From a virus (Duplodnaviria; Heunggongvirae; Uroviricota; Caudoviricetes): a DNA stretch of 46,613 nt. The DNA lies in the IMG/VR virus record IMGVR_UViG_2565956710_000003, positions 1 to 46,613 of that record; one strand, given 5' to 3'. Under the pieces are notes generated by a model. It was given only the letters and a program-made list of their open reading frames with translations, did not search any database and had not been told where the DNA came from. The translations under genes were made by a program, and so were the position numbers. This document shows positions 1,331 to 46,613 of this stretch, one piece after another. Within the stretch, counting starts at the first letter, position 1. Each line of letters opens with the position of its first letter.

Positions 1331-1345
1331 GCTTTTTTATACTAA
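1331..1345. other. attL core (B-O-P'), followed by the lambda P' arm (about 1346-1430)
   Basis: Core GCTTTTTTATACTAA followed by GTTGGCATTATAAAAAAGCATTGCTTATCAATTTGTTGCAACGAACAGGTCACTATCAGTCAAAATAAAATCATTATTTG, matching the lambda P' arm as I recall it. Confidence 0.9.
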
Positions 1346-1418: not shown

Positions 1419-2489
1419 TTATTTGATTTCAATTTTGTCCCACTCCCTGCCTCTGTCATCACGATACTGTGATGCCATGGTGTCCGACTTATGCCCGAGA
1501 AGATGTTGAGCAAACTTATCGCTTATCTGCTTCTCATAGAGTCTTGCAGACAAACTGCGCAACTCGTGAAAGGTAGGCGGATCCCCTTCGAAGGAAAGAC
1601 CTGATGCTTTTCGTGCGCGCATAAAATACCTTGATACTGTGCCGGATGAAAGCGGTTCACGACGAGTAGATGCAATTATGGTTTCTCCGCCAAGAATCTC
1701 TTTGCATTTATCAAGTGTTTCCTTCATTGATATCCCGAGAGCATCAACATGCAATGTTGTAGGGATGGCAATTTTTACACCTGTTTTGCTTTGCTCGACA
1801 TAAAGATATCCATCTACGATATCAGACCACTTCATTTCGCATAAATCACCAACTCGCTGCCCGGTAACAACAGCCAGTTCCATTGCAAGTCTGAGCCAAC
1901 ATGGTGATGATTCTGCTGCTTGATAAATTTTCAGGTATTCGTCAGCCGTAAGTCTTGATCTCCTTACCTCTGATTTTGCAGCGCGAGTGGCAGCGACCGG
2001 GTTTATTGTTATATGGCCTTCAGCTATTGCCTCTCGGAATGCATCGCTCAGTGTTGATCTGATTAACTTGGCTGACGCCGCCTTGCCCTCGTCTATGTAT
2101 CCATTGAGCATTGCCGCAATTTCTTTTGTAGTGATGTCTTCAAGTGGAGCATCAGGCAGCCCCCTCCTTATTGCTTTAATTTTGCTCATATAATTTATGA
2201 GTGTCTTCTGCTTGATTCCTCTGCTGGCGAGGATTTTTTCGTAGCGATCAAGCCATGAATGTAACGTAACAGAATTATCACTGTTGATTCTCGCTGTCAG
2301 AGGCTTGTGTTTGTGTCCTGAAAATAACTCAATGTTGGCCTGTATTGCTTCAGTGATTGCTATCCTCCTGTCTCGGCCTAATCCAAACTCTTTACCCGTC
2401 CTTGGGTCCCTGTAGCAGTAATATCCATTGTTTCTTATATAAAGATTAGGGGGTAAATCCCGGCGCTCATGACTTCGCCTTCTTCCCAT
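1419..2489 (-). CDS. int: Lambda-type tyrosine integrase
   Basis: 356-aa ORF beginning MGRRRSHERRDLPPNLYIRNNGYYCYRDPRTGKEF, essentially lambda Int; adjacent to attL. Confidence 0.95.
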   Translation of the reverse strand: MGRRRSHERRDLPPNLYIRNNGYYCYRDPRTGKEFGLGRDRRIAITEAIQANIELFSGHKHKPLTARINSDNSVTLHSWLDRYEKILASRGIKQKTLINYMSKIKAIRRGLPDAPLEDITTKEIAAMLNGYIDEGKAASAKLIRSTLSDAFREAIAEGHITINPVAATRAAKSEVRRSRLTADEYLKIYQAAESSPCWLRLAMELAVVTGQRVGDLCEMKWSDIVDGYLYVEQSKTGVKIAIPTTLHVDALGISMKETLDKCKEILGGETIIASTRREPLSSGTVSRYFMRARKASGLSFEGDPPTFHELRSLSARLYEKQISDKFAQHLLGHKSDTMASQYRDDRGREWDKIEIK

Positions 2490-5694: not shown

Positions 5695-5985
5695 TCATGA
5701 TTTACTCTCCATGAACTGGTCAATAGCCATGCTAAGTGACACACCTAAAGTCTCGATATGCTGCTGAATATCCTGTAGCGTCTGCACCTGAGATAACAGG
5801 ATTTCACGGTTGCATAACTCTTTAACCAGATGCTCAAACTTGCTGTAATAACCGATACGGCTTAGTGTTTCTTTCCCTGCATTATCACCTTCTTTGATAA
5901 TTCCTCTTTCGCTAAGAATCAGGTCGTGTTTGGTTCCGGTAATAACGTATTTTCCGAGGTCGATGTTTAGCTTCATTGTTTTCAT
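5695..5985 (-). CDS. Hypothetical protein
   Basis: 96-aa ORF starting [10 protein letters not shown] with a GAGGAA Shine-Dalgarno upstream; the longer 146-aa reading would overlap the upstream gene. Confidence 0.45.
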
Positions 5986-5995
5986 TGTTAATTCC

Positions 5996-6289
5996 TCAGT
6001 CATTACTGATAGCGCCATAGCGTGAGCGGTAATTACGCAGGCGCGGGTCAATTTCAGGGAAGTGGGTATATGTGGCTTTGCGGAATGGTCGGATTGATGT
6101 CTGGTAAATTCGCTCGTGTTCTTCTTTCTCTGCAAGCCATATACAATGGCGAAATTCCTTTTCCTCTTTCGTTTCCTGCGGTAGAGACATTATCCGGTCG
6201 TAGTTTTTTCTGAATTTATCCAGCACCTCCGATACGGAATTGCCGGAACAGCGGCGCGGGTCATCCGCACCATACAGAGGTGCTGGCAT
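5996..6289 (-). CDS. Hypothetical protein
   Basis: 97-aa ORF in the pL operon orientation. Confidence 0.5.
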   Translation of the reverse strand: MPAPLYGADDPRRCSGNSVSEVLDKFRKNYDRIMSLPQETKEEKEFRHCIWLAEKEEHERIYQTSIRPFRKATYTHFPEIDPRLRNYRSRYGAISND

Positions 6290-6312
6290 AATGGAATCCT
6301 TATATTGCTAAT

Positions 6313-6696
6313 TTAGAAGGGAATTGAATCGTCGTATTCAGGATGATTTTGATGATTGCTACTTTGCTGCTGTTGGCTGTTTCCTGAAGTTGCAAATCCA
6401 ATCTTTGCATTCAGTAATTCAAGAGTGATTGATTGACCATTTTGCCCCTGATAAACATCGACCCTGATGTTTTCTCCGGTAATTTCCACAATGCCTCCTT
6501 CAACCAGAACGCTACGGTAGTAATCCGCTTGCGCTCCCGGCTTGGCAAATACAACGGCGCTGTAGTTTGTCCATTCTTTCTTTTTTGTCTGGCGGTCGTA
6601 ATACTGAACGCCAGCACGGATATTGAATCCGATATTTTCACCTGCCTGAAACTCTCTTGCAGGCTTGTTTAGTCTTACAGTAATCGAATGTGCCAT
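6313..6696 (-). CDS. ssb: Phage single-stranded DNA-binding protein
   Basis: 127-aa protein from MAHSITVRLNK with a Gln-rich linker and an acidic C-terminal tail ending DDSIPF, typical of SSB. Confidence 0.8.
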   Translation of the reverse strand: MAHSITVRLNKPAREFQAGENIGFNIRAGVQYYDRQTKKKEWTNYSAVVFAKPGAQADYYRSVLVEGGIVEITGENIRVDVYQGQNGQSITLELLNAKIGFATSGNSQQQQSSNHQNHPEYDDSIPF

Positions 6697-7301
6697 TAAG
6701 CAACTGCTCCTTCTAATTCGTCTCGTCTGATGTTGTAAACGTCCTGCGCTTTGTGCTGCTCCGGTGTACCTTCGAGCATCTTCCACGCTTTGGCGAACGC
6801 CTGTTTAAGCTCTTCTACGGTGTTTTTCTGCATTGCTGCGTCAGTGAATGCTTTTAGAACCTGTTCAGGTGTAGGTGATGGTTTTGATTGCTTTACTGCT
6901 GCGTTCTGCTGATGTTTATGCTCGTCTGTATCTGCATCTTTCGCATCATCTATTCCGAACAAACCATTAAGGCAATACTTGCGCGCATAAGAGCTTGTAG
7001 CTCCCGTAACTTGTGCAGAATCCATTCCTTTCTTGCTTTCTTCCTCTCTTGCGAGAGCGGTTGCCGTATGGCGGTTTTCACCATCGGTAATAGTTGCCGT
7101 GGCTTTCACGTAATACCGATCACCAATCAACACAACTTCATCGCTGATTGATAAAAACAGGCCATTCAGTAACGGCTTAACGCCCTCAAGAATGTCTTCG
7201 CAGCTTCTGTATTTATATTTACCGAATGAGTTGTACTGATTTTTTGGCGCGTTCAGATTCTCCTGAATAGCTGCCAGTCTTGCGTAAAATTCTTTGCTCA
7301 T
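6696..7301 (-). CDS. erf: Erf-family single-strand annealing recombinase
   Basis: Begins MSKEFYARLAAIQENLNAPKNQYNSFGKYKYRSCEDILEGVKPLL, matching P22 Erf as I recall it; stop overlaps the ssb start (TAATG). Confidence 0.85.
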   Translation of the reverse strand: MSKEFYARLAAIQENLNAPKNQYNSFGKYKYRSCEDILEGVKPLLNGLFLSISDEVVLIGDRYYVKATATITDGENRHTATALAREEESKKGMDSAQVTGATSSYARKYCLNGLFGIDDAKDADTDEHKHQQNAAVKQSKPSPTPEQVLKAFTDAAMQKNTVEELKQAFAKAWKMLEGTPEQHKAQDVYNIRRDELEGAVA

Positions 7302-7311
7302 ATGTTTGTTC

Positions 7312-7482
7312 TCAGAATGGACATGGCCCAAGGAAATAACGCTGATTTAATACTTCAGTCTTTGCCGCATTTAAAAATACGCGAACACCTTCACGATCTC
7401 CCTTCTGGCGATACATTAACGCCTGCTGCGTGTACATGCGTCTCTGTAACTTGCTCTCCTTCACGGTGGTTGCAAGTGACAT
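7312..7482 (-). CDS. Small hypothetical protein (Arf-like position between kil and erf)
   Basis: 56-aa ORF MSLATTVKESKLQRRMYTQQ... with AAGGAG 6 nt upstream of the ATG. Confidence 0.45.
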   Translation of the reverse strand: MSLATTVKESKLQRRMYTQQALMYRQKGDREGVRVFLNAAKTEVLNQRYFLGPCPF

Positions 7483-7557
7483 GAATATCTCCTTCGTTAC
7501 CGATTAATTCTTTCATCTGACGAATGAATTCTTCGTCTGACCAGTTATCTGTAAAAC

Positions 7558-7710
7558 TCATTTCCTGCGATACCACGGAAGGTTGATAGCTGATTTCATC
7601 GCTTTATTTGCTTCAAGCCACATTTTGAAATCACCAATAAATCTGGCTATTACTGCTTTGTTTTGTGCTGCACGAAGCATCTGGTGATTGATGGTTATTT
7701 CATTGCGCAT
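7558..7710 (-). CDS. kil: Kil-like host-killing protein
   Basis: 50-aa ORF containing ARFIGDFKMWLEA, resembling the lambda Kil FIGDEKMFREA segment (recalled); located just downstream of cIII as in lambda. Confidence 0.5.
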   Translation of the reverse strand: MRNEITINHQMLRAAQNKAVIARFIGDFKMWLEANKAMKSAINLPWYRRK

Positions 7711-7829
7711 AACGCCTCCAGTTGTTTCTTTGCTGCTCTGATTAATTGTTTAACTCGGCGTGATAATTCAGATTCGAGCGGGTAGAAAGCGGACATGACG
7801 CCGCTACCCGCGAGCTGAAAGTGCATCAT
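7695..7829 (-). CDS. cIII: CIII-like FtsH inhibitor
   Basis: 44-aa ORF MMHFQLAGSGVMSAFYPLESELSRRVKQLI aligning with the lambda CIII core (AG...P.ES.L.R); AAGGAG Shine-Dalgarno 6 nt upstream. Confidence 0.6.
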   Translation of the reverse strand: MMHFQLAGSGVMSAFYPLESELSRRVKQLIRAAKKQLEALCAMK

Positions 7830-7893
7830 GGGTAACTCCTTATATTTGATTGCATAACGAAAACGCCTCTCGTGAAGCGTTATTGGTATGCAT

Positions 7894-7919
7894 ATAAAAA
7901 AGCCCTCACACTGGAGGGC
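7894..7919 (-). terminator. Rho-independent terminator (tL1-like) upstream of cIII
   Basis: Hairpin GCCCTC-ACACTG-GAGGGC followed on the minus strand by a T-run. Confidence 0.5.
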
Positions 7920-8042
7920 AAAGAAGATTTCCAATAATCAGAACAAGTCGGCTCCTGTTTAGTTACGAGCGACATTGCTCCGTGTATTCACTCGTTGGAA
8001 TGAATACACAGTGCAGTGTTTATTAGTATGCCTGTCTTTTAA

Positions 8043-8940
<898 letters not shown>

Positions 8941-9138
8941 CTGGATTCTCCTGTCAGTTAGCTTTGGTGATTGGATGGCCGGCGCTGAACCCCGGCTTAC
9001 TGGTTAGAGCGCCCGCACTACCAGTGACGCTGTCTTGAGGCGCAGATTGGTTACTGCTTGCCATGAGCGCTGTTTATACATTGGTCGAGCATCAGCCTGC
9101 TCATTCATCCAATCCCAAAGCCTTCTGCTTTGAATGCT

Positions 9139-9169
9139 ACCCTTCTTCAGGGCTTAATTTTTAAGAGCG
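9139..9169 (-). promoter_or_regulatory. nutL (boxB hairpin and boxA)
   Basis: Plus strand ACCCTTCTTCAGGGC (boxB, reverse complement) and TTAAGAGCG (boxA CGCTCTTAA reverse complement), upstream of N. Confidence 0.8.
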
Positions 9170-9201
9170 TCACCTTCATGGTGGTCAGTGCGTCCTGCTG
9201 A

Positions 9202-9272
9202 TGTGCTTAGTATCACCGCCAGTGGTATTTGTGTCAACACCGCCAGAGATAATTTATCACCGCAGATGGTTA
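9202..9272 (-). promoter_or_regulatory. pL promoter with oL1-oL2-oL3 operators
   Basis: Reverse complement of TTGACA (9233-9238) and GATACT (9209-9214); three 17-bp TATCACCGC-type operator sites. Confidence 0.85.
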
Positions 9273-9428
9273 TCTGTATGTTTTTTATATAGATTTATTT
9301 TTTGCAGGGTTGTGTGGATTGGGAAGGTGATCGAGAGATCTGAATTGCGATGTTTAGTGAGTTGTATCTATTAATTTTCAAATAAATACAATTGGTTATG
9401 TGTTATTGGGTGAAGGGGATCGTGAGGC

Positions 9429-9454
9429 AAAGAAAACCCGGCGCTGAGGCCGGG
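9429..9454 (-). terminator. Rho-independent terminator after the rex-slot gene (tImm-like)
   Basis: Hairpin CCCGGC-GCTGAG-GCCGGG followed on the minus strand by TTTTCT. Confidence 0.6.
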
Positions 9455-9463
9455 GCAATAAAG

Positions 9464-10399
9464 TTATTCTGCGTCAATATCTTCTACGGTTAGTAGAGGG
9501 TGTACCTTATCAAGCAATTGGATGAAATCTTCATAAGTATCGCTTGCTTGCATGAGTGTTGTTACCCCTGTAAGTCTCTTTTGAAGAAGACCATATCCAG
9601 TTCCCTCTGATAGAAACTGATGCATTTTTGCACCTGCCTTTTTTGCTTTTGCTCTTTCTTCCTTTAGCGCATTTCTTAGCTCTGGTGCCATGCGGTCATA
9701 AGTTATGTTATTCACAAGATGACCAAAGTATTGCGGTCTCCGCATGTTTGCTTTGAATGGGACTCCTCTGAGTCTACATAACTCCTCAAAGAATTCTGGC
9801 GGATATGTGCTTACCCATGGTCGCATTTCTTTAGCGATGAATTGCTCAAGGAGTTTTGCCAGTTCATCGCGCTCTCGTTCTTTTTGGTATCCAGTCGCTT
9901 CATCAACGAGCGCAACGGCGCCAACTCTGGCTAGAGCTTTATAGAGCGCTTTGGCTTTTGCAGCTGTATTCAAGTGATGCTTTTGTCGTAGGGCTCCATC
10001 CCTCTCAGCATCTGTCCATGCCTCGCAAAGCGCTGGTAGCATAGTAACGTCAATGCCATAAGCGACACCTGCACCTGATGTATTTTTATATACAATTGGT
10101 TCTGCTAGCGCTTCTCTTAGTTCATCAGAAATATATGGCTGAAGCTCATTTGCTTGGAGAACATATGGTAATTGACCTGGCTTCCCATTTGGTACCCATC
10201 TTGGCATTTTTGAGCCAACAGATACACCGAATGTTTCTGCCAATCCATTTGCACCTTGCATTGAAACCACTCTGCGACCATCAGGCAAAACAGCACAAGA
10301 AACACCTGTCGCCATTAATCCTGTGTGAGTTGGCTTTGGAGCTGATCTAACGATTGCTGACATTGCTGCTGCTTTTTGAGCTCGTTTTTTAGTATCCAT
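9464..10399 (-). CDS. Uncharacterised 311-aa protein occupying the lambda rexAB position
   Basis: ATG-start ORF (MDTKKRAQKAAAMSAIV...) between cI and pL, same strand as cI; own AT-rich upstream region; no similarity to RexA/RexB that I can recognise. Confidence 0.7.
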   Translation of the reverse strand: MDTKKRAQKAAAMSAIVRSAPKPTHTGLMATGVSCAVLPDGRRVVSMQGANGLAETFGVSVGSKMPRWVPNGKPGQLPYVLQANELQPYISDELREALAEPIVYKNTSGAGVAYGIDVTMLPALCEAWTDAERDGALRQKHHLNTAAKAKALYKALARVGAVALVDEATGYQKERERDELAKLLEQFIAKEMRPWVSTYPPEFFEELCRLRGVPFKANMRRPQYFGHLVNNITYDRMAPELRNALKEERAKAKKAGAKMHQFLSEGTGYGLLQKRLTGVTTLMQASDTYEDFIQLLDKVHPLLTVEDIDAE

Positions 10400-10610
10400 A
10401 AATCCCCCATATGCTTGGTTATGGTGATGATAGCTTATTTCAAATAAGCAGGGCAATGGTAGCTAAATCATTAATTAGCTACAAAATGCATCATTTTTAT
10501 TTATCTCATTGATATGTATATATTTATCGATAAAATATTTTTAGCTGTTCTGTGATTAAGCTAAATATTAATGCTAATTAATGCGTTAGCACAATGTGTG
10601 GATCACTACC

Positions 10611-10639
10611 AATAAAAAAGGCCGCACTTCTGTGCGACC
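10611..10639 (-). terminator. Rho-independent terminator immediately downstream of cI
   Basis: Hairpin GGTCGCAC-AGAA-GTGCGGCC followed on the minus strand by TTTTTTAT, starting 5 nt after the cI stop. Confidence 0.55.
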
Positions 10640-10644
10640 TTTCA

Positions 10645-11361
<717 letters not shown>

Positions 11362-11369
11362 TTAAATCT

Positions 11370-11445
11370 ATCACCGCAAGGGATAAATATCTAACACCGT
11401 GCGTGTTGACTATTTTACCTCTAGCGGTGATAATAGTTGCATGTA
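11370..11445. promoter_or_regulatory. oR3-oR2-oR1 operators with divergent pRM and pR
   Basis: TATCACCGCAAGGGATA, TAACACCGTGCGTGTTG and TACCTCTAGCGGTGATA between cI and cro; TTGACT -35 at 11405-11410. Confidence 0.85.
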
Positions 11446-11449
11446 CTAA

Positions 11450-11659
<210 letters not shown>

Positions 11660-11777
11660 ATAACCCCGCTCTTACACATCCCAGCCCTGAAAAAGGGCAT
11701 CCAATTAAACCACACCTATGGTGTATGCATTTATTTGCATACCTTCAATCAATTGTTATCTAAGGAAATACTTACAT

Positions 11778-12071
11778 ATGGTTCGTGCAAACAAACGCAA
11801 CGAGGCTCTAAGAATCGAGAGTGCGTTGCTTAACAAAATCGCAATGCTTGGAACTGAGAAGACAGCGGAAGCTGTGGGAGTTGATAAGTCGCAGATCAGC
11901 AGGTGGAAGAGGGACTGGATTCCAAAGTTCTCAATGCTGCTTGCTGTTCTTGAATGGGGTGTCGTTGACGACGACATGGCTCGATTGGCACGACAAGTTG
12001 CTTCGATTCTCACCAATAAAAAACGCCCGGCGGCAACCGAGCGTTCTGAACAAATCCAGATGGAATTCTGA
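11778..12071 (+). CDS. cII: CII transcriptional activator
   Basis: 97-aa ORF MVRANKRNEALRIESALLNKIAMLGTEKTAEAVGVDKSQISRWKRDWIPKFSMLLAVLEWGV, lambda CII. Confidence 0.95.
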   Translation: MVRANKRNEALRIESALLNKIAMLGTEKTAEAVGVDKSQISRWKRDWIPKFSMLLAVLEWGVVDDDMARLARQVASILTNKKRPAATERSEQIQMEF

Positions 12072-12103
12072 GGGAATTACTGGATCAATCCACAGGAGTA
12101 ATT

Positions 12104-12265
12104 ATGACAAAACGTCGTAAGAAATACCAGGAAAAAGAAGAGATTCGACACCCTGATTCACCTGAGGGATTAGTGGTAGCCGCAGCAAATAACAGGGCGT
12201 TCGCAGATCGCCTTGTTGGTGTTTACAGACTAGCAAAAGCAGGAGTGAAACATGGGCGTCGTTAA
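12104..12265 (+). CDS. Small basic hypothetical protein between cII and the initiator gene
   Basis: 53-aa ORF MTKRRKKYQEKEE... with AGGAG 5 nt upstream; below the length cut-off of the ORF track. Confidence 0.35.
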   Translation: MTKRRKKYQEKEEIRHPDSPEGLVVAAANNRAFADRLVGVYRLAKAGVKHGRR

Positions 12266-12314
12266 GTTAGCTGATTACAGGCATAACCCTGTACAACATC
12301 AGGAGGCATCCAGT

Positions 12315-13131
12315 ATGGGGTATGTCTCTATACACCGCCAGTTTATGGACAGCAGGCTCTATAAGGACTCTCAGGCAGTACATCTTTGGCTTCACTTAAT
12401 CCTCAAGGCTAATCACGAATCTACTGTCGTCAATACGGATATCGGTCCGATAACTGTTGATCGCGGTCAGATGATAACTGGACGCCCGTCGCTGGTCAGA
12501 GAAACATTCATCCCAGACAACAAAGTTCGGAGCTTATTACGGACTTTTGAGTCGAAAGGGATGCTTAATATTTGCTCGATGGGGAAGAAATTTAGCCTGT
12601 TTACAATCGTTAAATATGACGATTTTCAGGCAAAAAATTGTCCAACGGTTGTCCAACGGTTGTCCAACGCAAACACCAGTAATGGCGCGCCTCTCAGCGG
12701 AGATTGTCCAACGGTTGTCCAACGGTTGTCCATAAACAATAATATAAATAATATCTCTAATACTGACGTATTAGAGAGTGCCACAGCAGACAAAAAGTCT
12801 GACAAGAAAAAACCTTCCGTCAGCTGTCAGGATGTTGTCGATGCTTACCACGAAATCCTTCCTGAAGCGCCAAGAATCCGCGCACTGAATGACAAGCGTA
12901 AAAACCAGATCCGAACGTTCTGGCGCAAAGCCGGAGTGATAACCCGACAGCTTGACGGGCATGGTTTCACGATGCAGGACTGGAGAAATTATTTGAGCTA
13001 CGTAGGCGAAAATTGCCGATGGATGTTCGAAGAGCGCCCAAACCATCAACGCGGAACCGTCTGGCACAAAAAGGGATTTGATTTCCTGCTTAACGATAAT
13101 ACCTACCTGAAAGTTCGTGAGGGTGAACACG

Positions 13132-13142
<11 letters not shown>
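12315..13142 (+). CDS. Replication initiator (O-like, with internal origin iterons)
   Basis: ORF carrying two clusters of TTGTCCAACGG iterons and an AT-rich stretch; start chosen at the ATG with AGGAGG 8 nt upstream (an alternative start is at 12252). Confidence 0.7.
12638..12733. repeat. Origin iterons: two clusters of 11-bp TTGTCCAACGG repeats, followed by an AT-rich unwinding-like stretch
   Basis: Tandem units at 12638-12670 and 12704-12733 separated by 33 bp; AT-rich run 12733-12760 immediately after. Confidence 0.75.
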
Positions 13143-16527
<3,385 letters not shown>

Positions 16528-39044: not shown

Positions 39045-39072
39045 ATTAACCCACCGTCAGGTGGTTTTTTTG
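39045..39072. terminator. Bidirectional rho-independent terminator
   Basis: Hairpin CCACC-GTCA-GGTGG flanked by an A-run upstream and TTTTTTT downstream; overlaps the 3' end of the Mnt-like gene. Confidence 0.6.
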
Positions 39073-39377
39073 TTTAGCAGTTCTCTCAACTTTTCGTTCT
39101 GCTCTCTGAACTTTTCCTGTATTTCTTTTTGCATGGCGATAACCTGGGCTTGAAGTTGAACTAGCGCATCAACATTTAGCGGAACCGAGACGCTGTTGAT
39201 TTTATCTGCTATTTCCCCGAGTGTATTTTCTGCATTCAAGGCATCTTCCAGTATCTGAACAATCTCTGAGTTCATTGATCTGCCGTTACGTTTGGCTCGT
39301 TCAGCTATAGCATCCCGCATTCCTGCAGGAAGCCTGATATTGAACCTATCCATTTCATGACTAGGGAACTTGCTCAT
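39057..39377 (-). CDS. mnt: Mnt-like ribbon-helix-helix repressor (copy 1)
   Basis: 106-aa ORF with RHH motif FNIRLPAGMRDAIAERAKRNGRSMNSEIVQILEDAL and a C-terminal coiled coil ending KKTT, as P22 Mnt does. Confidence 0.7.
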   Translation of the reverse strand: MSKFPSHEMDRFNIRLPAGMRDAIAERAKRNGRSMNSEIVQILEDALNAENTLGEIADKINSVSVPLNVDALVQLQAQVIAMQKEIQEKFREQNEKLRELLNKKTT

Positions 39378-39488
39378 ATGACCTCAACGTAAAGATGTTC
39401 GCTAAACAATAGCACCAACTTGACATCAAAATAAATGGTGTTAAATTGGTTCTAGAACCAAGTTGGTATCATTGTGGGAGGATTACTT
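39378..39488. promoter_or_regulatory. Divergent promoter/operator region between mnt and arc
   Basis: Palindrome GGTTCTAGAACC, flanking inverted repeat ACCAACTTG...CAAGTTGGT, and TTGACA-like hexamers. Confidence 0.6.
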
Positions 39489-39662
39489 ATGAAAGATGTG
39501 CTTTACACAGGTCGTAAAAGTCAAAGTTTCCAGCTTCGTTTGCCAGCGCGAATGAAGGAGGAGATTAGACGTGTTGCTGAAATGGATGGAATTTCTATCA
39601 ACTCTGCGATTGTGCAGCGACTGGCTAAAAGCCTGAGAGAGGAAAGAGCTAATGCCCAGTAA
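39489..39662 (+). CDS. arc: Arc-like ribbon-helix-helix repressor
   Basis: 57-aa ORF MKDVLYTGRKSQSFQLRLPARMKEEIRRVAEMDGISINSAIVQRLAKSL with GGAGG upstream. Confidence 0.7.
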   Translation: MKDVLYTGRKSQSFQLRLPARMKEEIRRVAEMDGISINSAIVQRLAKSLREERANAQ

Positions 39663-39751
39663 AAATAGTGAAGCCCGGCAGTGCGTGAACACAAACCGGG
39701 CCTCTATGTCAGTAACCGTATGCAAGGAAACTAACATGAATATTGTAGCAA
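39662..39751 (-). ncRNA. Candidate sar-like antisense RNA over the ant start region (speculative)
   Basis: Minus-strand TATAAT at 39758-39763; imperfect hairpin GCCCGG...CCGGGC (39673-39701) followed on the minus strand by TCACTATTTTT in the arc-ant spacer. Confidence 0.25.
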
Positions 39752-40362
39752 AATCAGATTATAACTTCCACGGAGTTGAATTGGTGCCCACCCGTGATAT
39801 GCATGGTGTTTGGTTTACATCATCTAATATTGCATCTGCACTTAAATACGCAAATAGTCGTGCAGTAACAATGATTTATAACAAGTATAGCGATGAGTTT
39901 AGCGCCGGAATGACTCAGGTACTCGAAGTGAGTACCTCAGGAAATTATCGCAAAAAAGTGCGAGTTTTCTCACTACGCGGTGCCCACCTAATCGCGATGT
40001 TTGCTCGCACTCCGGTAGCCAAAGAGTTCCGCCGCTGGGTGCTGGATATTTTGGATCGGCAGGCAGAATGCTCACCGATTGCAAAACAGTTTACTGACGA
40101 AGAACTGGTTAATCTCTGCTACTTACAATTGTGGATGGAGAAGAGTCAACAAATGTGCAAACACATCTACCCAGGAATGAAGCAAATTGGCTCTGAGCTT
40201 TCAGGAAGAATTTACGATATTGCATATGAGACTCGCTATATGTCAGAAGAAACCAAGAAATCACTTCTTCGTGAAATGAAGAATCTTGATACCAACAATT
40301 TTGTCGTAAAGAACGCTCAGCCAATGCTGACAAAACTGCGCGGCGAGGAATGGATTCATTGA
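39736..40362 (+). CDS. ant: Antirepressor with BRO-N domain
   Basis: About 208 aa from MNIVAKSD (AAGGA Shine-Dalgarno); N-terminal FHGVELVPTRDMHGVWFTSSNIASALKY is BRO-N-like; start uncertain (alternatives at 39652 and 39706). Confidence 0.6.
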   Translation: MNIVAKSDYNFHGVELVPTRDMHGVWFTSSNIASALKYANSRAVTMIYNKYSDEFSAGMTQVLEVSTSGNYRKKVRVFSLRGAHLIAMFARTPVAKEFRRWVLDILDRQAECSPIAKQFTDEELVNLCYLQLWMEKSQQMCKHIYPGMKQIGSELSGRIYDIAYETRYMSEETKKSLLREMKNLDTNNFVVKNAQPMLTKLRGEEWIH

Positions 40363-40384
40363 TTGGTGCGCCGGACGGCGCAAA

Positions 40385-40456
40385 AAGAAAACCGCCAGTG
40401 TGCTGCTGGCGGCCTATGTCACACCCTTACTACCACATAAGGAATGCCTAATGACT
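40385..40456 (-). ncRNA. Candidate sar-like antisense RNA over the start of the second antirepressor gene (speculative)
   Basis: Minus-strand GTGACA, 17-bp spacer, TACATT inside the first codons of the 40451 gene; hairpin CCGCCAG-TGTGCTG-CTGGCGG (40393-40413) followed on the minus strand by TTTTCTTTTT. Confidence 0.3.
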
Positions 40457-41176
40457 TTGAAGAATGTAGCAAACATCGGATCCGTTGTCACGGATAAAAC
40501 CATTGACAGCCAAAGTCTTCTGATGATGGTTAATGAAGCTCGCAAGTTATGTGGAGAGCCATCAGTACGTAACAACAAATTCATCGAGAAAATTGAGGAT
40601 GAATTGGAGGGCGAGACCTACACAAAAAGTGTAGGTCGGAAAAACGGGGCTGACATTGATGTTATCTCCATGACTATCAAGCAGGCGCTTCGTGTTGCTG
40701 CTCGCGAATCTAAAGCAGTTCGCCGAACACTTGTAGACAAACTTGAAAGTATGCAGGAAGCACACATTAAAAGCGGTAAATCAGCGAGTGGACTTGTTGA
40801 GTATCGTCAAGCGCGAACACTGAAAATGACGGTTGAAGCTGTTACCAATCTGTTCGATCTGATGCCAAATCTTGCGCCGGAGGCAAAGCAGACAGCGGCA
40901 GCAAGTATAATCAACCCGCTTGTTGGTTTTAATGCAATACCTCTTCCGGCAATAGAAGAGCATTACTACTCAGCAGGGGAGGTTGCAGAGCAGCTTGGAG
41001 TAACGGCCAACAAGATTGGTCGCATTGCTAACGCAAACAACCTCAAAACTGAGCAGTACGGGAAGTTCTTCCTGGATAAATCGGCGCATTCCAGCAAACA
41101 GGTAGAGGCGTTCCGCTACAATTCTGAAGGCGTTAAAGCACTACAACACCTGCTACATGGCTCAAATGTGGCGTAA
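40451..41176 (+). CDS. Second antirepressor-like protein (KilA-C/ANT-type C-terminal domain)
   Basis: 241-aa ORF with AAGGA 7 nt upstream; the C-terminal segment YSAGEVAEQLGVTANKIGRIANANNLKTEQYGKFFL is ANT-like. Confidence 0.55.
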   Translation: MTLKNVANIGSVVTDKTIDSQSLLMMVNEARKLCGEPSVRNNKFIEKIEDELEGETYTKSVGRKNGADIDVISMTIKQALRVAARESKAVRRTLVDKLESMQEAHIKSGKSASGLVEYRQARTLKMTVEAVTNLFDLMPNLAPEAKQTAAASIINPLVGFNAIPLPAIEEHYYSAGEVAEQLGVTANKIGRIANANNLKTEQYGKFFLDKSAHSSKQVEAFRYNSEGVKALQHLLHGSNVA

Positions 41177-41195
41177 CATTTTATAATGAAAACTA

Positions 41196-41219
41196 AACCC
41201 GCTTAATCGCGGGTTTTTT
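41196..41219. terminator. Bidirectional terminator between convergent genes
   Basis: Hairpin ACCCGC-TTAATC-GCGGGT followed by TTTTTTC. Confidence 0.65.
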
Positions 41220-41460
41220 CTTTCCTTAGAATTTCAGCCGCAACTTCTTTTACTCGTTCCGAGATTAATGAGGCCAGTCTCTCTTCTTCATCACGATACC
41301 CGCTTACAGGTGATGGTTTGGAGAGAGATTCTTCCATCGTAGCCACAATTTCGGAATTGATAGACCTGTTATTCATTTTTGCACGCTGCTTAATCTTAGC
41401 GTGCAACTCGTGCGTAAGCCTCAAGTGGAACTGCGCCTCATCGTATTTGCTGTACATCAT
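41203..41460 (-). CDS. mnt: Mnt-like ribbon-helix-helix repressor (copy 2)
   Basis: 85-aa protein from MMYSKYDEAQFHLRLTHELHAKIKQRAKMNNRSINSEIVATMEESLSKPSPVSGYRDEEERLA, closely resembling P22 Mnt (recalled). Confidence 0.7.
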   Translation of the reverse strand: MMYSKYDEAQFHLRLTHELHAKIKQRAKMNNRSINSEIVATMEESLSKPSPVSGYRDEEERLASLISERVKEVAAEILRKEKTRD

Positions 41461-41592
41461 CAATGCCTCACCAAATGGGTGGAATGGCATCGTAAAACCT
41501 ACTGTACAAATCAACAATCGTACCGTTTCGGTATGTAACAAACACTAGCCGTAGCCATGCTGCGGCGATTCCTTGTATCTGGAGCAAATTAA

Positions 41593-44298
41593 ATGACAGA
41601 CATTACAGCCAATGTTGTGGTAAGCATGCCATCGCAACTCTTCACTATGGCGCGTTCTTTTAAAGCTGTAGCTAATGGCAAAATTTATATCGGTAAAATT
41701 GACACTGACCCGGTAAATCCTGAAAACCAGATTCAAGTTTATGTAGAGAACGAAGATGGCTCTCACGTTCCTGTTACACAGCCAATCGTCATCAATGCCG
41801 CTGGGTATCCAGTATATAACGGACAGATTGCCAAATTCGTAACCGTGCAAGGCCATTCTATGGCTGTTTACGATGCTTATGGCACTCAGCAGTTTTATTT
41901 TCCAAATGTATTAAAATACGATCCAGATCAGTTTGGCCCAGACTTCAAAGAGCAGTTATCTCAATCAGGAGCATACATTAATGATGATTCAAAAGGTGAT
42001 GCATTAATTGGTGTAAGGCAGCCATTTACCGGGGCTGTAACTATAACTCAGCATGAAAACAATGCTCTTTTCTTAAATGTAAAACAATTTGGAGCAATTG
42101 GGGATGGGAAATATCATCCATTATCTGAGTGGTTTTCTTCAATTTCTGAAGCAAAATCCTTATATCCTTTTGTTGACTCATTATCTCAGTCAATAGACTG
42201 GGCCGCGTGGCAAGCTGCCCTTAACACAGGAAAGGTTATTTATGGTACTGATAATGCGTATGTAATAACGGATACGTTAACACCTGTTTCTGGTGGTGGG
42301 ATAATTTGTCTTGGTGTGGGCAAATGGGTCTCAGGATATACTGCAACATTTGCTCCTGATATTACCACAGGAACCACATTCCTGATGTACGGGGTAGGAA
42401 ATAAAAAATATACTGTAGATTGTGTTTCTAATATGGATGTTAGTGGTGGTGTGGTTTCTAATCCATCTTCCGAAGACCCGTATACAACAACGGCACCTGC
42501 GTCATCATATGATTTATTGGATTTTACTAACGGTGATGCTAATGGGGCTATAAGAGCCACGCTTAAACCATTCTCTGCCGCAATATTGATGCCTGAGACA
42601 GGATGTGTTCGCCTTGAGAACTTTCGTATTGTTCCATATTTCAATGGGCTGGATGGTTATAAAGACATTGCAAATACCGGTCTTGGCGATGAGTGGGATG
42701 TAGGTATTTGGTCACGTGCTTCTTTTGGCAATGAATACCGCAATTTGCAGGTGGTTGGATACTGGCGCAAGACGGCACTTTTAAAAACGAACATTCCTGT
42801 ATCTGGCACGCTGGCCGCTCAGGGCGAGGATGAAAACTATTATCACTGTAGATTCCAAGGATTCAAGGGTGTTTCGATCCGCGCCCATGATGTATTCCGA
42901 ATTACAGCGGTAACGTCCAGCACTATCGAAATCCCATGGTCAGCAAGCCACACCTTCGAAACGTCCGGGGTTTTAAGATCTGGAGGCAGGAATTTCACTT
43001 ATTCAGGATTATCCGTATCCGGTGATAAGTTAGTATTTACTGGAGTGTCTAACGCTTCTGAGGCAACAGTAGGTTCTACTATACGGCGAAATGACATAGA
43101 TAACTTTGGTATGGCGGGAACGCAATTTTTCGATTGCTACATTACCAGCCTGTATCACCACACACATCTGCTTGCCACATCGCAATACCTGTCTCAACCA
43201 TTCAGCCGACCATCAGAGTGTATGGAGGTTTCAGGGGAACCAGTTCGCGGTGTACAGGTACATGCAGGAACCATTCAGGGATGGGATGATGTTCTTATTC
43301 ATCTACATGACTGTGGAAATATGAACTTTTACAGTACATATTTCGAAAGCCAGCAAGCATATGTAACTATAAATGGTGGTAATGCTATTGGTTATGGAGC
43401 ACGTATGATAGCTTCCCGGCAATCAACAAGCTCATTACCATATGCAGCAGGGAATACTCGAGTGCTTAGAATGGTCGGGTGCTCTGAAGGCAATGGCGTT
43501 GACTGGGGGCCTGTATTTAACAACTATACAGGAGGAAGATATAATTCTGGAGACGGTGTATTTAACCCCCGCGATGCATTTATAGACCATAAATCTCTTC
43601 CTGAGCAGTCAGGAGGTGAGTCAAGACTCGTATCACAAAAAGGAAATGCCAGAGTAGTATGTGGTGTTGGTAAAACTGTACTGCTTGGACCAACGTCAGG
43701 AGATTGTAATTTACAGAGTAATACTGGAAGTTTAAATATTAGAAGTGGGATAAGAGTAAGAATCGGTCACGCTGATGGAACAGACTGGTGGTTGGCAGAT
43801 GCTAATAAAATAGCTCCTGTTGATGATAATGTTAAAGCTATTGGACAGCCATCAAACAGATGCTCTGTTATTTATGCAGGAACCGGGTCAATCAATACAT
43901 CAGATGAAACTCTTAAAACAAGATATGATATTCTTAATGCAGAGCGTGATGCCGCTATTGAAATAAAGTCAGTCATCTATAAATTTAAATTTAATGACTC
44001 AATTAATCACAAAGGAATTGAGTCGTCCAGGTATCATTTTGGCGTTGGCGCTCAAACCGTAGGGGATATTCTTAGAAAGCATGGTTTAAACCCTGAGCAA
44101 TATGCTTTTTGGTGTTACGATGAATGGCCTGACGTATGGGATGAAGAGGTGATAACTGAAGAGAGCACAGATCCTGATACAGGTGAGAAAATTTATTCTC
44201 AATATAAAACAGGAGATATGATTCTTGTTAAAAAAGCAGGAGGACGCTACGGAATTCGTTATGACGAATTGGCTATGTTTATATTAATGGCAATGTAG
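41593..44298 (+). CDS. Tailspike: P22-type head-binding domain, divergent receptor domain, C-terminal intramolecular chaperone
   Basis: 901-aa ORF; N-terminus [59 protein letters not shown] matches the P22 gp9 head-binding domain; C-terminus has an S74-type autoprocessing signature ([12 protein letters not shown]). Confidence 0.85.
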
Positions 44299-44316
44299 TT
44301 GCAATAAATGCAGTAT

Positions 44317-44348
44317 ATCCCGCATAAAAAATGCGGGATTGTTTTTAT
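44317..44348 (+). terminator. Rho-independent terminator after the tailspike gene
   Basis: Hairpin ATCCCGCAT-AAAAA-ATGCGGGAT followed by TGTTTTTAT. Confidence 0.75.
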
Positions 44349-44639
44349 CTGGTGTATTTATGAATTTTAAGTAAATTTTAGTATTGATTACTGCATCGCA
44401 GTTAAAGCCTCATTACCTATGAGGCAAAACTGAGACACACAAGGCTTTGCACTGGATTGCAAGGCTTTGTGCTATTCGATTGTGGTTGAGGCTGATCACT
44501 CTACCTTCTCATCAAGCCAATCCGCCCACCATTGCATCATTTCTCTGCGCTTATCGAGATACTGAGCATGGTTGTAAATTCAGCAAACGACGTAATGTGT
44601 TTGACAAAAAATTAGCGCAAGAAGACAAAAAGTCACCTT

Positions 44640-44807
44640 GCGCTAATGCTCTGTTACAGGTCACTAATACTATCTAAGTAGTTGATTCATAGTGACTGGA
44701 TATGTTGTGTTTTGCAGTATTATACAGTCTATTTTTTAAGCTAAATGTATTGTAAGAGATTGAGATTAATGATTTTTCCTGTTTCTGGTTCAGCTTTTTT
44801 ATACTAA
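44640..44807. other. attR (P arm with Int arm-type sites, plus core 44793-44807)
   Basis: CTGTTACAGGTCACTAATAC...AGTGACTGG arm-type sites resembling the lambda P arm; core GCTTTTTTATACTAA followed by the host B' sequence CTTGAGCGAAACGGGAAGG. Confidence 0.85.
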
Positions 44808-44897: not shown

Positions 44898-45374
44898 TTA
44901 ACTAAACATCGCAGTAATCGAGGCACTCGCCAGAGAGTGAAAATGAACGTTAAACCCGACCATCGCGCCGCTGGCACCTTCATCGACATCAATACGTTCT
45001 ACATCCAGCGCGTGAACGGTAAAAATGTAGCGATGGGTTTCGCCTTTCGGCGGCGCTGCGCCATCGTACCCGGTTTTACCAAAGTCGGTACGCGTCTGCA
45101 AAACGCCGTCTGGCATAGCTACCAGACCAGAGCCAAACCCTTGCGGTAATACGCGGGTATCAGCGGGTAAATTAACAACTACCCAGTGCCACCAGCCGGA
45201 GCCGGTTGGCGCATCCGGGTCATAGCAGGTGACAACAAAACTTTTCGTTCCCACAGGAACATCATCCCACGCCAGATGCGGTGAAATATTATCGCCATCG
45301 TAACCCATGCCGTTAAAGACATGACGATGCGGCAGCTTATCGCCATCGCGCAGATCGTTACTGATGAGTTTCAT
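44898..45374 (-). CDS. ybhB: Host YbhB (PEBP/RKIP-family protein)
   Basis: 158-aa ORF with the conserved PEBP motif DPDAPTGSGWWHWVV; right flank of lambda attB. Confidence 0.85.
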   Translation of the reverse strand: MKLISNDLRDGDKLPHRHVFNGMGYDGDNISPHLAWDDVPVGTKSFVVTCYDPDAPTGSGWWHWVVVNLPADTRVLPQGFGSGLVAMPDGVLQTRTDFGKTGYDGAAPPKGETHRYIFTVHALDVERIDVDEGASGAMVGFNVHFHSLASASITAMFS

Positions 45375-45482: not shown

Positions 45483-46613
45483 ATGAAACGCGCATATAAA
45501 TACCGGTTTTACCCGACAACTGAGCAGGCTGAGCTTTTAGCTCAGACGTTTGGCTGTGTGCGCTTCGTCTACAATTCCATCCTTCGTTGGCGTACCGATG
45601 CGTACTACGAGCGAAAAGAAAAGATCGGTTATCTACAGGCCAACGCTCGCCTTACGGCGCTCAAAAAAGAGCCTGAATACATATGGCTGAATGATGTTTC
45701 CTGCGTTCCCCTCCAGCAGTCGTTGCGCCACCAACAAGCCGCCTTTGCTAACTTCTTTGCCGGACGAGCTGCATATCCGGCTTTCAAAAGCAAACGGCAC
45801 AAACAGGTGGCTGAGTTCACTGCCAGCGCGTTTAAACACCGTGACGGCGAGTTGTATATAGCAAAGAGCAAGTCGCCGCTGGATGTTCGCTGGAGTCGAG
45901 AATTACCATCTGCGCCGTCAACCGTTACCATTTCCAGAGATAGCGCTGGCAGGTACTTTGTTTCCTGCCTGTGTGAGTTTGAACCTGTATCAATGCCTGT
46001 TACCGCTAAAACGGTCGGCATTGATGTGGGCTTAAAAGATTTATTCGTCACCGATACCGGATTCAAAACCGACAATCCCCGCCACACCGCTAAATATGCG
46101 AAGCGATTAACGCTGCTACAGCGACGTTTAAGCAGGAAGCAAAAAGGCTCAAGAAACCGTATTAAAGCCCGCTTAAAGGTCGCCCGACTCCACGCGAAAA
46201 TCGCCGATTGCCGGATGGACAATCTGCACAAGTTGTCCCGCAAACTGATTAACGAAAACCAAGTTGTTTGCGTCGAATCCCTCAAGGTGAAAAACATGAT
46301 CCGCAACCCGAAGCTGTCTAAAGCAATAGCTGACGCAGGCTGGAGCGAACTTGTTCGCCAGCTCCAGTACAAAGGCAAATGGGCCGGGCGGTCAGTGGTC
46401 GCCATTGACCAGTATTTACCGTCCTCAAAATGCTGTAGTTGCTGCGGTTTCACCATGCAAAAAATGCCTCTTAATGTTCGTAAATGGCACTGCCCTGAAT
46501 GCGGCGCAGACCATGATCGCGACATTAACGCGGCACGTAATATTAAAGCTGCCGGGCTGGCAGTGTTAGCCCACGGAGAGCCTGTAAACCCTGAATCGCA
46601 GCACGCGGCTTAG
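45483..46613 (+). CDS. tnpB: IS200/IS605-family TnpB (OrfB; RNA-guided RuvC-like nuclease family)
   Basis: 376-aa ORF beginning MKRAYKYRFYPTTEQAELLAQTFGCVRFVYNSIL, with a RuvC-like core (VGIDVGLKDLFVTDTG) and a C-terminal zinc finger CCSCCGF...CPECG; no tnpA in the 108 bp upstream. Confidence 0.85.
   Translation: MKRAYKYRFYPTTEQAELLAQTFGCVRFVYNSILRWRTDAYYERKEKIGYLQANARLTALKKEPEYIWLNDVSCVPLQQSLRHQQAAFANFFAGRAAYPAFKSKRHKQVAEFTASAFKHRDGELYIAKSKSPLDVRWSRELPSAPSTVTISRDSAGRYFVSCLCEFEPVSMPVTAKTVGIDVGLKDLFVTDTGFKTDNPRHTAKYAKRLTLLQRRLSRKQKGSRNRIKARLKVARLHAKIADCRMDNLHKLSRKLINENQVVCVESLKVKNMIRNPKLSKAIADAGWSELVRQLQYKGKWAGRSVVAIDQYLPSSKCCSCCGFTMQKMPLNVRKWHCPECGADHDRDINAARNIKAAGLAVLAHGEPVNPESQHAA

Follow-up and report, generated by a model that had tools for sequence, protein, structure and literature searches.

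We analyzed the tailspike gene of a prophage within a 46,613-nt stretch of DNA (the window) and found a three-part protein whose central module is associated, across complete E. coli genomes, with the genes of the K13/K20/K23 capsule. The architecture, consisting of a P22-family docking domain, a beta-helix, and a chaperone predicted to cleave itself off, is nearly certain. The probable target of the core is the K13/K20/K23 (Rib-Kdo) group 2 capsule; this assignment is correlative, and we give the reading as a whole, capsule type included, a probability of roughly 0.55. Modular tailspikes with swappable centers and cleavable chaperones are textbook, and the architecture of this tailspike therefore teaches nothing new. 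The three-module layout is known and recurrent (CUS-3; PMC5380687). What is new is the likely receptor, which amounts to a specific and cheaply testable hypothesis connecting a sequence to a capsule type.

A further and more tentative step, to which we give somewhat less than even odds, is that the core represents the first K13/K20/K23 depolymerase known at the gene level, perhaps a beta-Kdo-sidase or beta-ribofuranosidase, and with it the founding characterized member of a large unclassified family of beta-helix glycosidases (with the Asp of LGDxWDxG and the Glu of YFES). No sequence-defined K13/K20/K23 depolymerase was found in the literature searched. A phage glycanase that cleaves beta-Kdo linkages was reportedly described in the 1980s, and our literature search for it returned no match. 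Among E. coli K types, K13_K23 has one of the strongest associations with invasive disease (PMC13171606). If the assignment is true, the enzyme would be a reagent for typing and decapsulation, would help in predicting phage host range, and would offer a biochemical handle on an uncharacterized enzyme family acting on Kdo/ribofuranose polymers. The chimeric query used here, in which a receptor-binding core is combined with a capsule gene, is a fast means of receptor assignment for prophage spikes.

The core module and the K13/K20/K23 capsule

The core is exchanged as a module between phage backbones. Together with the chaperone, it is found at 98.4% DNA identity in strain YDC107, where the 991-aa protein that contains it belongs to an unrelated prophage adjoining yfgI/pdeF, and the lytic Kayfunavirus YZ1 carries core and chaperone at 72% identity (residues 131 to 901). 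The spikes of Vectrevirus have a core that is 41% identical, and other HK620-like prophages keep both ends of the tailspike and have the center swapped. The chimeric nature proposed for this tailspike in the earlier note, which was made from the sequence alone, is borne out by this comparative evidence and by the domain and structural evidence given below.

To look for an association with host surface genes, we used 5,426 complete genomes, of which 15 carry the core on one or the other of two unrelated prophage backbones; hundreds of draft assemblies carry it as well. The polymerase gene of the K13/K20/K23 capsule, krkA, was present in 65 of the 5,426 genomes (1.2%). Of the 15 carriers, 11 had it, versus 54 of the 5,411 remaining genomes (odds ratio, 273; P = 4e-19, a value that ignores kinship). 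The link was seen on each backbone taken separately, with krkA in 6/8 carriers (P = 6e-11) and 5/7 carriers (P = 4e-9). All 15 carriers had the group 2 gene kpsD, against a background of 31% (P = 3e-8). For a control tailspike, in which both ends are kept and the center is another, krkA was found in at most 4 of 33 genomes (P = 6e-4); this control center may be mildly enriched for krkA, and there is therefore a hint of some lineage effect. The carriers may be partly clonal. At megablast sensitivity, no complete E. coli genome had the diverged YZ1-type core.

In the carrier YDC107, capsule region 2 has the published K13 layout, and a 1,113-aa ORF within it matches KrkA almost exactly (E = 1.8e-236). 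A K100 (ribose-ribitol-phosphate) capsule, a candidate prompted by a Bcs3-like domain, was rejected: region 2 has no genes for CDP-ribitol, and KrkA accounts for the N-terminal domain. The receptor had initially been described only as an O-antigen or capsule; the krkA and kpsD associations agree with this and narrow it to the capsules of group 2, with K13/K20/K23 as the most likely type.

It is important to note that krkA was absent from 4 of the 15 carriers. In one of these exceptions, XH992, region 2 is clearly of another kind, with seven genes, and a diverged KrkA in that strain was rejected on this ground. The core might accordingly recognize a broader or different group 2 feature, such as the conserved poly-Kdo linker or several of the K antigens that contain Kdo or ribose, and so persist in hosts with another region 2. 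Several other K types do have Rib-Kdo repeats built by KrkA-like enzymes (PMC13171606, PMC12887879), and kps, in 15/15 carriers, follows the core more closely than krkA does. However, group 2 kps is found in 31% of genomes and the core in only 15, and 73% of these 15 fall within a K type that makes up 1.2% of the collection. Moreover, at least 17 K loci have entered CC131, and capsule replacement is common (PMC13171598), so replacement after lysogeny explains the krkA-negative carriers more simply. We thus regard a broader specificity as unlikely, though it is the strongest competitor to the K13/K20/K23 assignment.

Slightly less likely still is that the core is an O-antigen endoglycosidase like those of P22, Sf6, and HK620, with the krkA link reflecting linkage between O type and K13 in a few lineages. 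The virion module is 96 to 97% identical at the DNA level to those of the O-antigen phages HK620, N7, and Sf6, and the 4 carriers without krkA would also fit. The distribution of the core argues against it: the core is common to Kayfunavirus and Vectrevirus spikes, and in Vectrevirus the spike adjoins a K5-lyase spike, with halos formed by the phage (vKMB14; PMC11162368). Relatives of the YZ1 receptor-binding protein are found in prophages of O102, O6, O1, and O153 strains, and the related YZ1 protein had been flagged by Pas et al. as unlikely to be specific for O-antigen (PMC10408124). Further, all 15 carriers are group 2 encapsulated, krkA is found in O25b:H4 as well as O102:H6 strains, and no gtr O-antigen modification genes follow the tailspike in the window, where the terminator and attR are found instead.

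The beta-helix core and its candidate catalytic acids

The core spans residues ~176 to 663 (positions 42118 to 43581, plus strand) and is the presumed depolymerase and receptor-specificity module. Structure prediction of the central region, which the earlier note had advised, gave a confident right-handed parallel beta-helix (pLDDT, 89.9). The central domain had been put at about 650 residues; the catalytic body comprises ~490 of these, and a stalk of ~105 residues had been lumped in with it. As had been proposed, the domain is unrelated in sequence to the P22 endorhamnosidase (gp9 residues ~125 to 666), with full-length P22 chains in the PDB matching residues 1 to 121 only; despite this, its fold class is the same. 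Single-sequence searches of the PDB and searches with a 71-sequence profile gave no match to the catalytic core beyond its first coils and the chaperone.

A first protein search returned near-identical copies only, and the diversity of the family was obtained from an exhaustive search of representatives. The core family forms 373 clusters at 50% identity. Two acids, Asp369 in the motif LGDEWDVG (codon at 42697 to 42699, plus strand) and Glu585 in the motif YFESQ (codon at 43345 to 43347, plus strand), are invariant in 71/71 diverse family members and are candidate catalytic residues, while Arg430, His522, Glu545, and Arg552 are kept in at least 68 of the 71. From this conservation, the chemistry could be hydrolysis by an acid pair that includes Asp369 and Glu585, a suggestion we hold with some reserve. 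Together with the halos of vKMB14, the invariant acids lend indirect support to a polysaccharide-degrading activity. They are uninformative on specificity because they are kept across 373 clusters that surely span many substrates.

The name endosialidase (GH58), given to the 991-aa relative in one NCBI record, was rejected, as the model is a beta-helix and not a beta-propeller. The Pfam family End_tail_spike matches through profile positions 126 to 160 only (residues 735 to 769, in the stalk; 22.8 bits, under the cutoff of 25), and endosialidase chains match the tailspike in the stalk and chaperone only.

A beta-helix of this kind could also be a nonenzymatic adhesin, or act as a lyase or deacetylase rather than a hydrolase. 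We consider this improbable. An invariant Asp and Glu across 71 diverse members suit the acid pair of a glycosidase, and a Pfam scan of the tailspike detected no SGNH-type esterase domain. Rib-Kdo contains no uronic acids, the sugars on which beta-elimination lyases act.

Docking domain, chaperone, and host prophage

Residues 1 to 113 (41593 to 41931, plus strand) form a P22-family head-binding (tail-docking) domain of the HK620/Sf6 subtype, with a match to the full PF09008 (Head_binding) profile (E = 9.4e-67; 222.8 bits against a cutoff of 24). The earlier note was right in recognizing a P22 head-binding domain but overstated the likeness as almost residue for residue: identity to P22 gp9 is only 74% (residues 2 to 117), and the domain is nearer to those of Sf6 (93%, residues 1 to 115) and HK620 (94.8%, residues 1 to 114). 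The Sf6 gp14 structure 7sg7 matches it with an E value of 1.6e-86, and solved N-domains of the P22, Sf6, and CUS-3 types match as well. The neck and N-terminal beta-helix cap (residues 114 to 175; 41932 to 42117, plus strand) constitute the recombination joint. DNA in common with L003, a tailspike with another center, stops exactly at 41931 and resumes at 43849, from where the two are 88% identical. The module in common with the 991-aa YDC107 protein (98.4%) starts at 41991, at about residue 134. Residues 116 to 175 are 50% identical to Sf6, and the motifs KGDxLxxV(R/K)QP and NVKQFGAxG(D/S)G are also present in YZ1.

Downstream of the core, residues 664 to 769 (43582 to 43899, plus strand) form the C-terminal stalk, which is presumably trimeric and interdigitated. 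Its low pLDDT in the monomer model is expected, because such a region exists only in the trimer. The stalk carries two putative folding sensors, Asp745 and Arg756, that align with Asp1239 and Arg1250 of T5 pb1. The S74-type intramolecular chaperone follows (residues 770 to 901; 43900 to 44295, plus strand). Its Pfam match (PF13884, Peptidase_S74) is marginal, at 23 bits against a cutoff of 22; PDB sequence searches, in contrast to that narrow margin, matched 7y5s (E = 6.6e-23), 9vvr (2.6e-15), 3gw6 (1.9e-14), and 4uw8 (5.8e-12), as well as 6eu4 and 3gud, the weakest E value of the set being 2.6e-09. In the model of this domain, pLDDT exceeds 90 throughout residues 769 to 901, starting at the cleavage site, and its top Foldseek matches are 3GW6 (E = 2e-12), 4UW8 (4e-11), and 3GUD, with a probability of 1.00.

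These matches, together with a 12-residue motif at residues 768 to 779, uphold the S74-type signature seen at first reading; the Ser-Asp cleavage site proposed with it does not stand, and homology with T5 pb1 places the predicted scissile bond at Thr769-Ser770 (43897 to 43902, plus strand). Ser770 aligns with pb1 Ser1264 and with the positions changed from Ser to Ala in the 3gw6 (S911A) and 4uw8 (S1264A) constructs, and Lys775 aligns with the catalytic Lys (pb1 Lys1269). All four proposed autoproteolysis residues are present, at spacing identical to that in the mechanism described for T5 pb1 and K1F, and Ser770, Asp771, Lys775, Asp745, and Arg756 do not vary among 5 relatives. We are therefore highly confident of the identity of the chaperone, with its autoproteolytic release predicted from this full set of catalytic residues. 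Cleavage of the precursor (computed mass, 98.4 kDa) would give a fragment of 15.3 kDa and a mature spike of 83.1 kDa.

In the mode of action that we propose, residues 1 to 113 would dock the trimeric spike on the tail, and residues ~176 to 663 would bind and depolymerize the host surface polysaccharide, so that the virion bores through to the outer membrane. Residues 770 to 901 would nucleate folding of the trimeric C-terminal stalk. Once Arg756 of the neighboring chain is in place, Ser770 and Lys775 would cut the Thr769-Ser770 bond and so remove the chaperone, leaving the 83-kDa mature spike and the 15-kDa fragment. The substrate would most likely be the K13/K20/K23 group 2 capsule, with the repeat ->3)-beta-D-Ribf-(1->7)-beta-D-Kdop-(2->, and the chemistry most likely hydrolysis by an acid pair including the invariant Asp369 and Glu585.

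The tailspike gene itself (41593 to 44298, plus strand; 901 codons and a TAG stop, from the ORF list) is preceded by a Shine-Dalgarno-like GGAG, read from the sequence, 9 nt 5' of the ATG (41580 to 41583, plus strand). An intrinsic-terminator-like hairpin (44317 to 44339) with a T-run (the whole at 44317 to 44349, plus strand) begins 19 nt past the stop codon. The protein matches PHROG phrog_1171, "tail spike protein," over its whole length, and 8 complete E. coli genomes have copies, 98 to 99% identical, that are annotated with the name "phage tailspike protein." In strain 702/18, an IS3 element splits the copy of the gene.

The genome is P22-like, and its virion genes end with the tailspike, which follows the ejection proteins and immI; the genes upstream include one for an Inj_translocase, Arc/Mnt-like genes, and one for an antirepressor. 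The prophage (~43.5 kb) is complete, belongs to the HK620/Sf6 subgroup of P22-like phages, and lies at the lambda attachment site between ybhC (4 to 1284, minus strand) and ybhB (44898 to 45374, minus strand). The lambda-type att core GCTTTTTTATACTAA has exactly two matches in the window, where 0.02 would be expected by chance: a left copy at 1331 to 1345 and a right copy at the prophage end (attR; 44793 to 44807, plus strand), 495 nt downstream of the tailspike gene. That the gene is part of a decaying remnant without present function, as the split copy in 702/18 might suggest, is very improbable, given an intact ORF with Shine-Dalgarno sequence, terminator, and all catalytic residues, a complete prophage with both att cores, and an identical protein on 17 contigs with 98 to 99% copies on two backbones.

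Comparison with known systems

The best matches to the stalk and chaperone are Klebsiella phage Kp7 gp51 (7Y5S) and the 9VVR tail spike, which are also beta-helix spikes, but their catalytic cores have no detectable homology to this one past the first coils. The tailspikes of HK620 and Sf6 are, like this one, right-handed beta-helices, and the neck and first coils here are Sf6-like; in the PDB sequence search, no similarity to either was found past about residue 175. They are O-antigen endoglycosidases without a cleavable chaperone, whereas a chaperone is present here. The chaperones of K1F (3GW6) and T5 pb1 (4UW8) have the Asp/Arg sensor, the Thr-Ser bond, and the Lys at the same spacing, although the passenger domains upstream are unrelated; the likeness is one of sequence and predicted fold, and cleavage in this tailspike is predicted from it.

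Two proteins have the same core and chaperone behind a different anchor. The YZ1 receptor-binding protein (AUX83623.1) has a different, T7-fiber-like N-terminal adapter, and the 991-aa "tail fiber domain-containing protein" of YDC107 (WP_105955783.1) has an unrelated prophage anchor.

The endosialidase tailspike of CUS-3, a P22-like temperate phage found as a prophage in E. coli K1, is built of the same three parts (Stummeyer et al. 2006, as summarized in PMC5380687), and its head-binding domain is 88% identical over residues 1 to 125. In both cases the catalytic module also occurs in a T7-like lytic phage, K1F for CUS-3 and YZ1 here. The center of CUS-3, however, is a K1-specific sialidase with the GH58 beta-propeller, while the center here is a beta-helix of another family, for which K13/K20/K23 is the probable target.

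Prophage setting of the tailspike gene

The 901-residue ORF that the earlier note placed at 41593-44298 on the plus strand is present in our ORF list. By sequence, GGAG lies 9 nt 5' of its ATG, and a hairpin with a T-run lies 19 nt beyond its TAG stop (both plus strand). Two other hairpins may bear on the control of tailspike transcription: a GC-rich one with a weak T tract (41548-41566, plus strand), 27 nt upstream of the start codon, and a bidirectional terminator-like one (41195-41216, both strands) between a 258-aa ORF and a divergent Arc-like gene.

The tailspike is the last gene of a complete prophage of ∼43.5 kb. Exactly two copies of the lambda att core GCTTTTTTATACTAA were found in the window (1331-1345 and 44793-44807; chance expectation, 0.02). 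The insert is flanked by ybhC on the left (4-1284, minus strand) and ybhB on the right (44898-45374, minus strand), and a 356-aa tyrosine recombinase gene lies at 1419-2489 (minus strand). The virion module is 96 to 97% identical to those of HK620, N7, and Sf6; lambda-site integration is thus paired with an HK620/Sf6-like virion module in this prophage. Between ybhB and bioA sits a TnpB gene of the IS200/IS605 family (45483-46613 and past the window end, plus strand; HTH_OrfB_IS605, OrfB_IS605, and Cas12f1-like TNB domains), and three contigs with the identical tailspike (L013 to L015) have the same flank. The exact tailspike sequence occurs on 17 contigs, with the ybhB-TnpB-bioA flank on those reaching beyond the gene.

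The tailspike is preceded by ejection-protein genes of the P22 type and by an immI-like region (Arc/Mnt-like repressors and an antirepressor). Two different immI regions precede the identical 901-aa tailspike (L013 versus L014 and L015). One version consists of Mnt, Arc, and a 292-aa antirepressor, and that of the window (39057-41541) consists of three Arc-family genes, a 236-aa antirepressor, and the 258-aa ORF, which matched no Pfam family. These two settings show that mosaicism extends directly upstream of the tailspike.

Modules of the tailspike protein

Pfam Head_binding matched in full length across residues 1 to 113 (E value, 9.4e-67). A P22-family head-binding domain is present, as the earlier note had proposed, but the match to P22 was not "almost residue for residue": identity was only 74% to P22 gp9 (residues 2 to 117), compared with 93% to Sf6 and 94.8% to HK620. 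In the joint (residues 114 to 175), identity to Sf6 was 50%, and the module common to other phages starts within it. The DNA at 41991-44348 was 98.4% identical to the gene of a 991-aa protein with the same core and chaperone in an unrelated prophage of Escherichia coli YDC107 (L002 5333-8308; NZ_CP025707.1), and L003, an HK620-like prophage whose tailspike centre differs, shared DNA only at 41537-41931 and 43849-44480. This pattern of sharing indicates that both gene ends are backbone-linked cassettes and that the centre is exchangeable.

The 991-aa relative has another N-terminal anchor (∼220 residues), and its prophage lies beside yfgI/pdeF. This version is commoner in the protein database than the P22-like one and is also found in Escherichia marmotae (P0062 and P0105). 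One NCBI record (P0020) names it a "putative endo-N-acetylneuraminidase," which is misleading, as the sialidase propeller is absent and the likeness to endosialidases is confined to the stalk and chaperone. The 824-aa tailspike of L003 (3001-5475; NZ_OZ040490.1) is common, and its head-binding and chaperone ends are nearly the same as those of the window tailspike. Its centre is a distant member of the beta-helix family of the core, with LGDxWDxG, VGYWR, and the equivalents of Asp369 and Glu585 conserved (family alignment A1).

The core itself (residues ∼176 to 663) had no sequence match among solved structures, and P22 tailspike chains aligned to residues 1 to 121 only. A 71-sequence profile searched against solved structures reached the first coils (GH55 glucanases, LKA1 gp49, phi297 gp27, and Sf6) and the C terminus, with nothing between. 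The view that the centre is unrelated to the P22 tailspike therefore holds for sequence, but the fold relationship to P22 needed correcting. An exhaustive search with the core recovered 373 representatives (50% identity clusters), 140 of them below an E value of 1e-30, which makes it a member of a large uncharacterized family; PHROG phrog_33794 lists its function as "unknown function." Asp369 and Glu585 were invariant (71/71 members), Arg430, His522, Glu545, and Arg552 were kept in at least 68/71, and Asp433 was kept in 66/71.

The stalk (residues 664 to 769) and chaperone (residues 770 to 901) follow. Pfam Peptidase_S74 passed narrowly (23 bits; cutoff, 22), and solved chaperone-bearing proteins were matched strongly (7y5s, E value of 6.6e-23; 9vvr, 2.6e-15; 3gw6, 1.9e-14; 4uw8, 5.8e-12). 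Autoproteolysis in T5 pb1 and K1F relies on an Asp/Arg pair that senses folding, on a Thr-Ser bond as the cleavage site, and on a Lys at Ser+5 (PMC4690869); the corresponding residues are present here with identical spacing (Asp745, Arg756, Thr769|Ser770, and Lys775) and are unchanged across five relatives. A model of residues 660 to 901 was confident from the predicted cleavage site onward, and its top Foldseek matches were three solved chaperones. Sequence, residues, and fold thus bear out the chaperone domain of the earlier note, but the predicted bond precedes Ser770 and is not Ser-Asp. From the sequence, cleavage is predicted to yield a mature spike of 83.1 kDa and a 15.3-kDa fragment. 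Overall, the earlier observation and interpretation were essentially right, except for the N-terminal domain subtype, the cleavage position, and the P22 fold relationship.

Association of the core with a capsule type

Relatives of the YZ1 receptor-binding protein have been noted in prophages across several O serogroups, and a K antigen has been suggested as the receptor (Pas et al., PMC10408124). In YDC107, one of the core carriers, region 2 of the group 2 kps locus has two genes, encoding an acetyltransferase and a 1,113-aa ORF whose first 356 residues match solved KrkA (E value, 1.8e-236) and whose residues 396 to 729 match Bcs3. The K13/K20/K23 backbone, ->3)-beta-Ribf-(1->7)-beta-Kdop-(2->, is polymerized by KrkA alone, and the K13 locus as published is arranged like that of YDC107 (PMC12887879).

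We searched 5,426 complete E. coli genomes with chimeric queries joining the tailspike core to a krkA fragment and read co-occurrence from the places per genome record. krkA was present in 65/5,426 genomes, and their union with the 15 core carriers comprised 69 genomes, so that 11/15 carriers were krkA positive, compared with 54/5,411 noncarriers (odds ratio, 273; P = 4e-19, kinship ignored). Group 2 kpsD was found in 15/15 carriers versus 31% of all genomes. The krkA association held on both backbones (P22-like, 6/8; 991-aa, 5/7), and a control tailspike with the same two ends and a different centre had krkA in at most 4 of 29 to 33 carriers; the association thus tracks with the core rather than with the backbone. 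Place counts imply two core copies in SBF22, DLL7555, 702/18, and OZ547246, presumably one per prophage backbone; in 702/18, an IS3 element interrupts the P22-like copy.

krkA was absent from 4/15 carriers. One of these, XH992, has a genuinely different region 2 (L012, its kps locus, 5733-15904) of seven genes, encoding two ∼580-aa hypothetical proteins, two GT2 enzymes, Glf, an acyltransferase, and a sugar dehydrogenase. Such carriers could be explained by capsule switching, which is frequent (PMC13171598), or by a broader tailspike specificity. The YZ1-type core (∼70% DNA identity to the window) had no megablast match in the 5,426 complete genomes, despite reported prophage receptor-binding proteins at least 95% identical to that of YZ1 (Pas et al., PMC10408124); those matches may thus lie elsewhere in the protein or in draft genomes.

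This tailspike is valuable mainly for the hypothesis that it offers on receptor and enzyme, which can be tested and concerns a capsule type of clinical relevance. Eight complete genomes annotate near-identical proteins as "phage tailspike protein," and PHROG phrog_1171 ("tail spike protein") spans it end to end. The architecture is already known, with a precedent in CUS-3, whose tailspike follows the same three-part plan and shares its catalytic module with a T7-like phage (PMC5380687).
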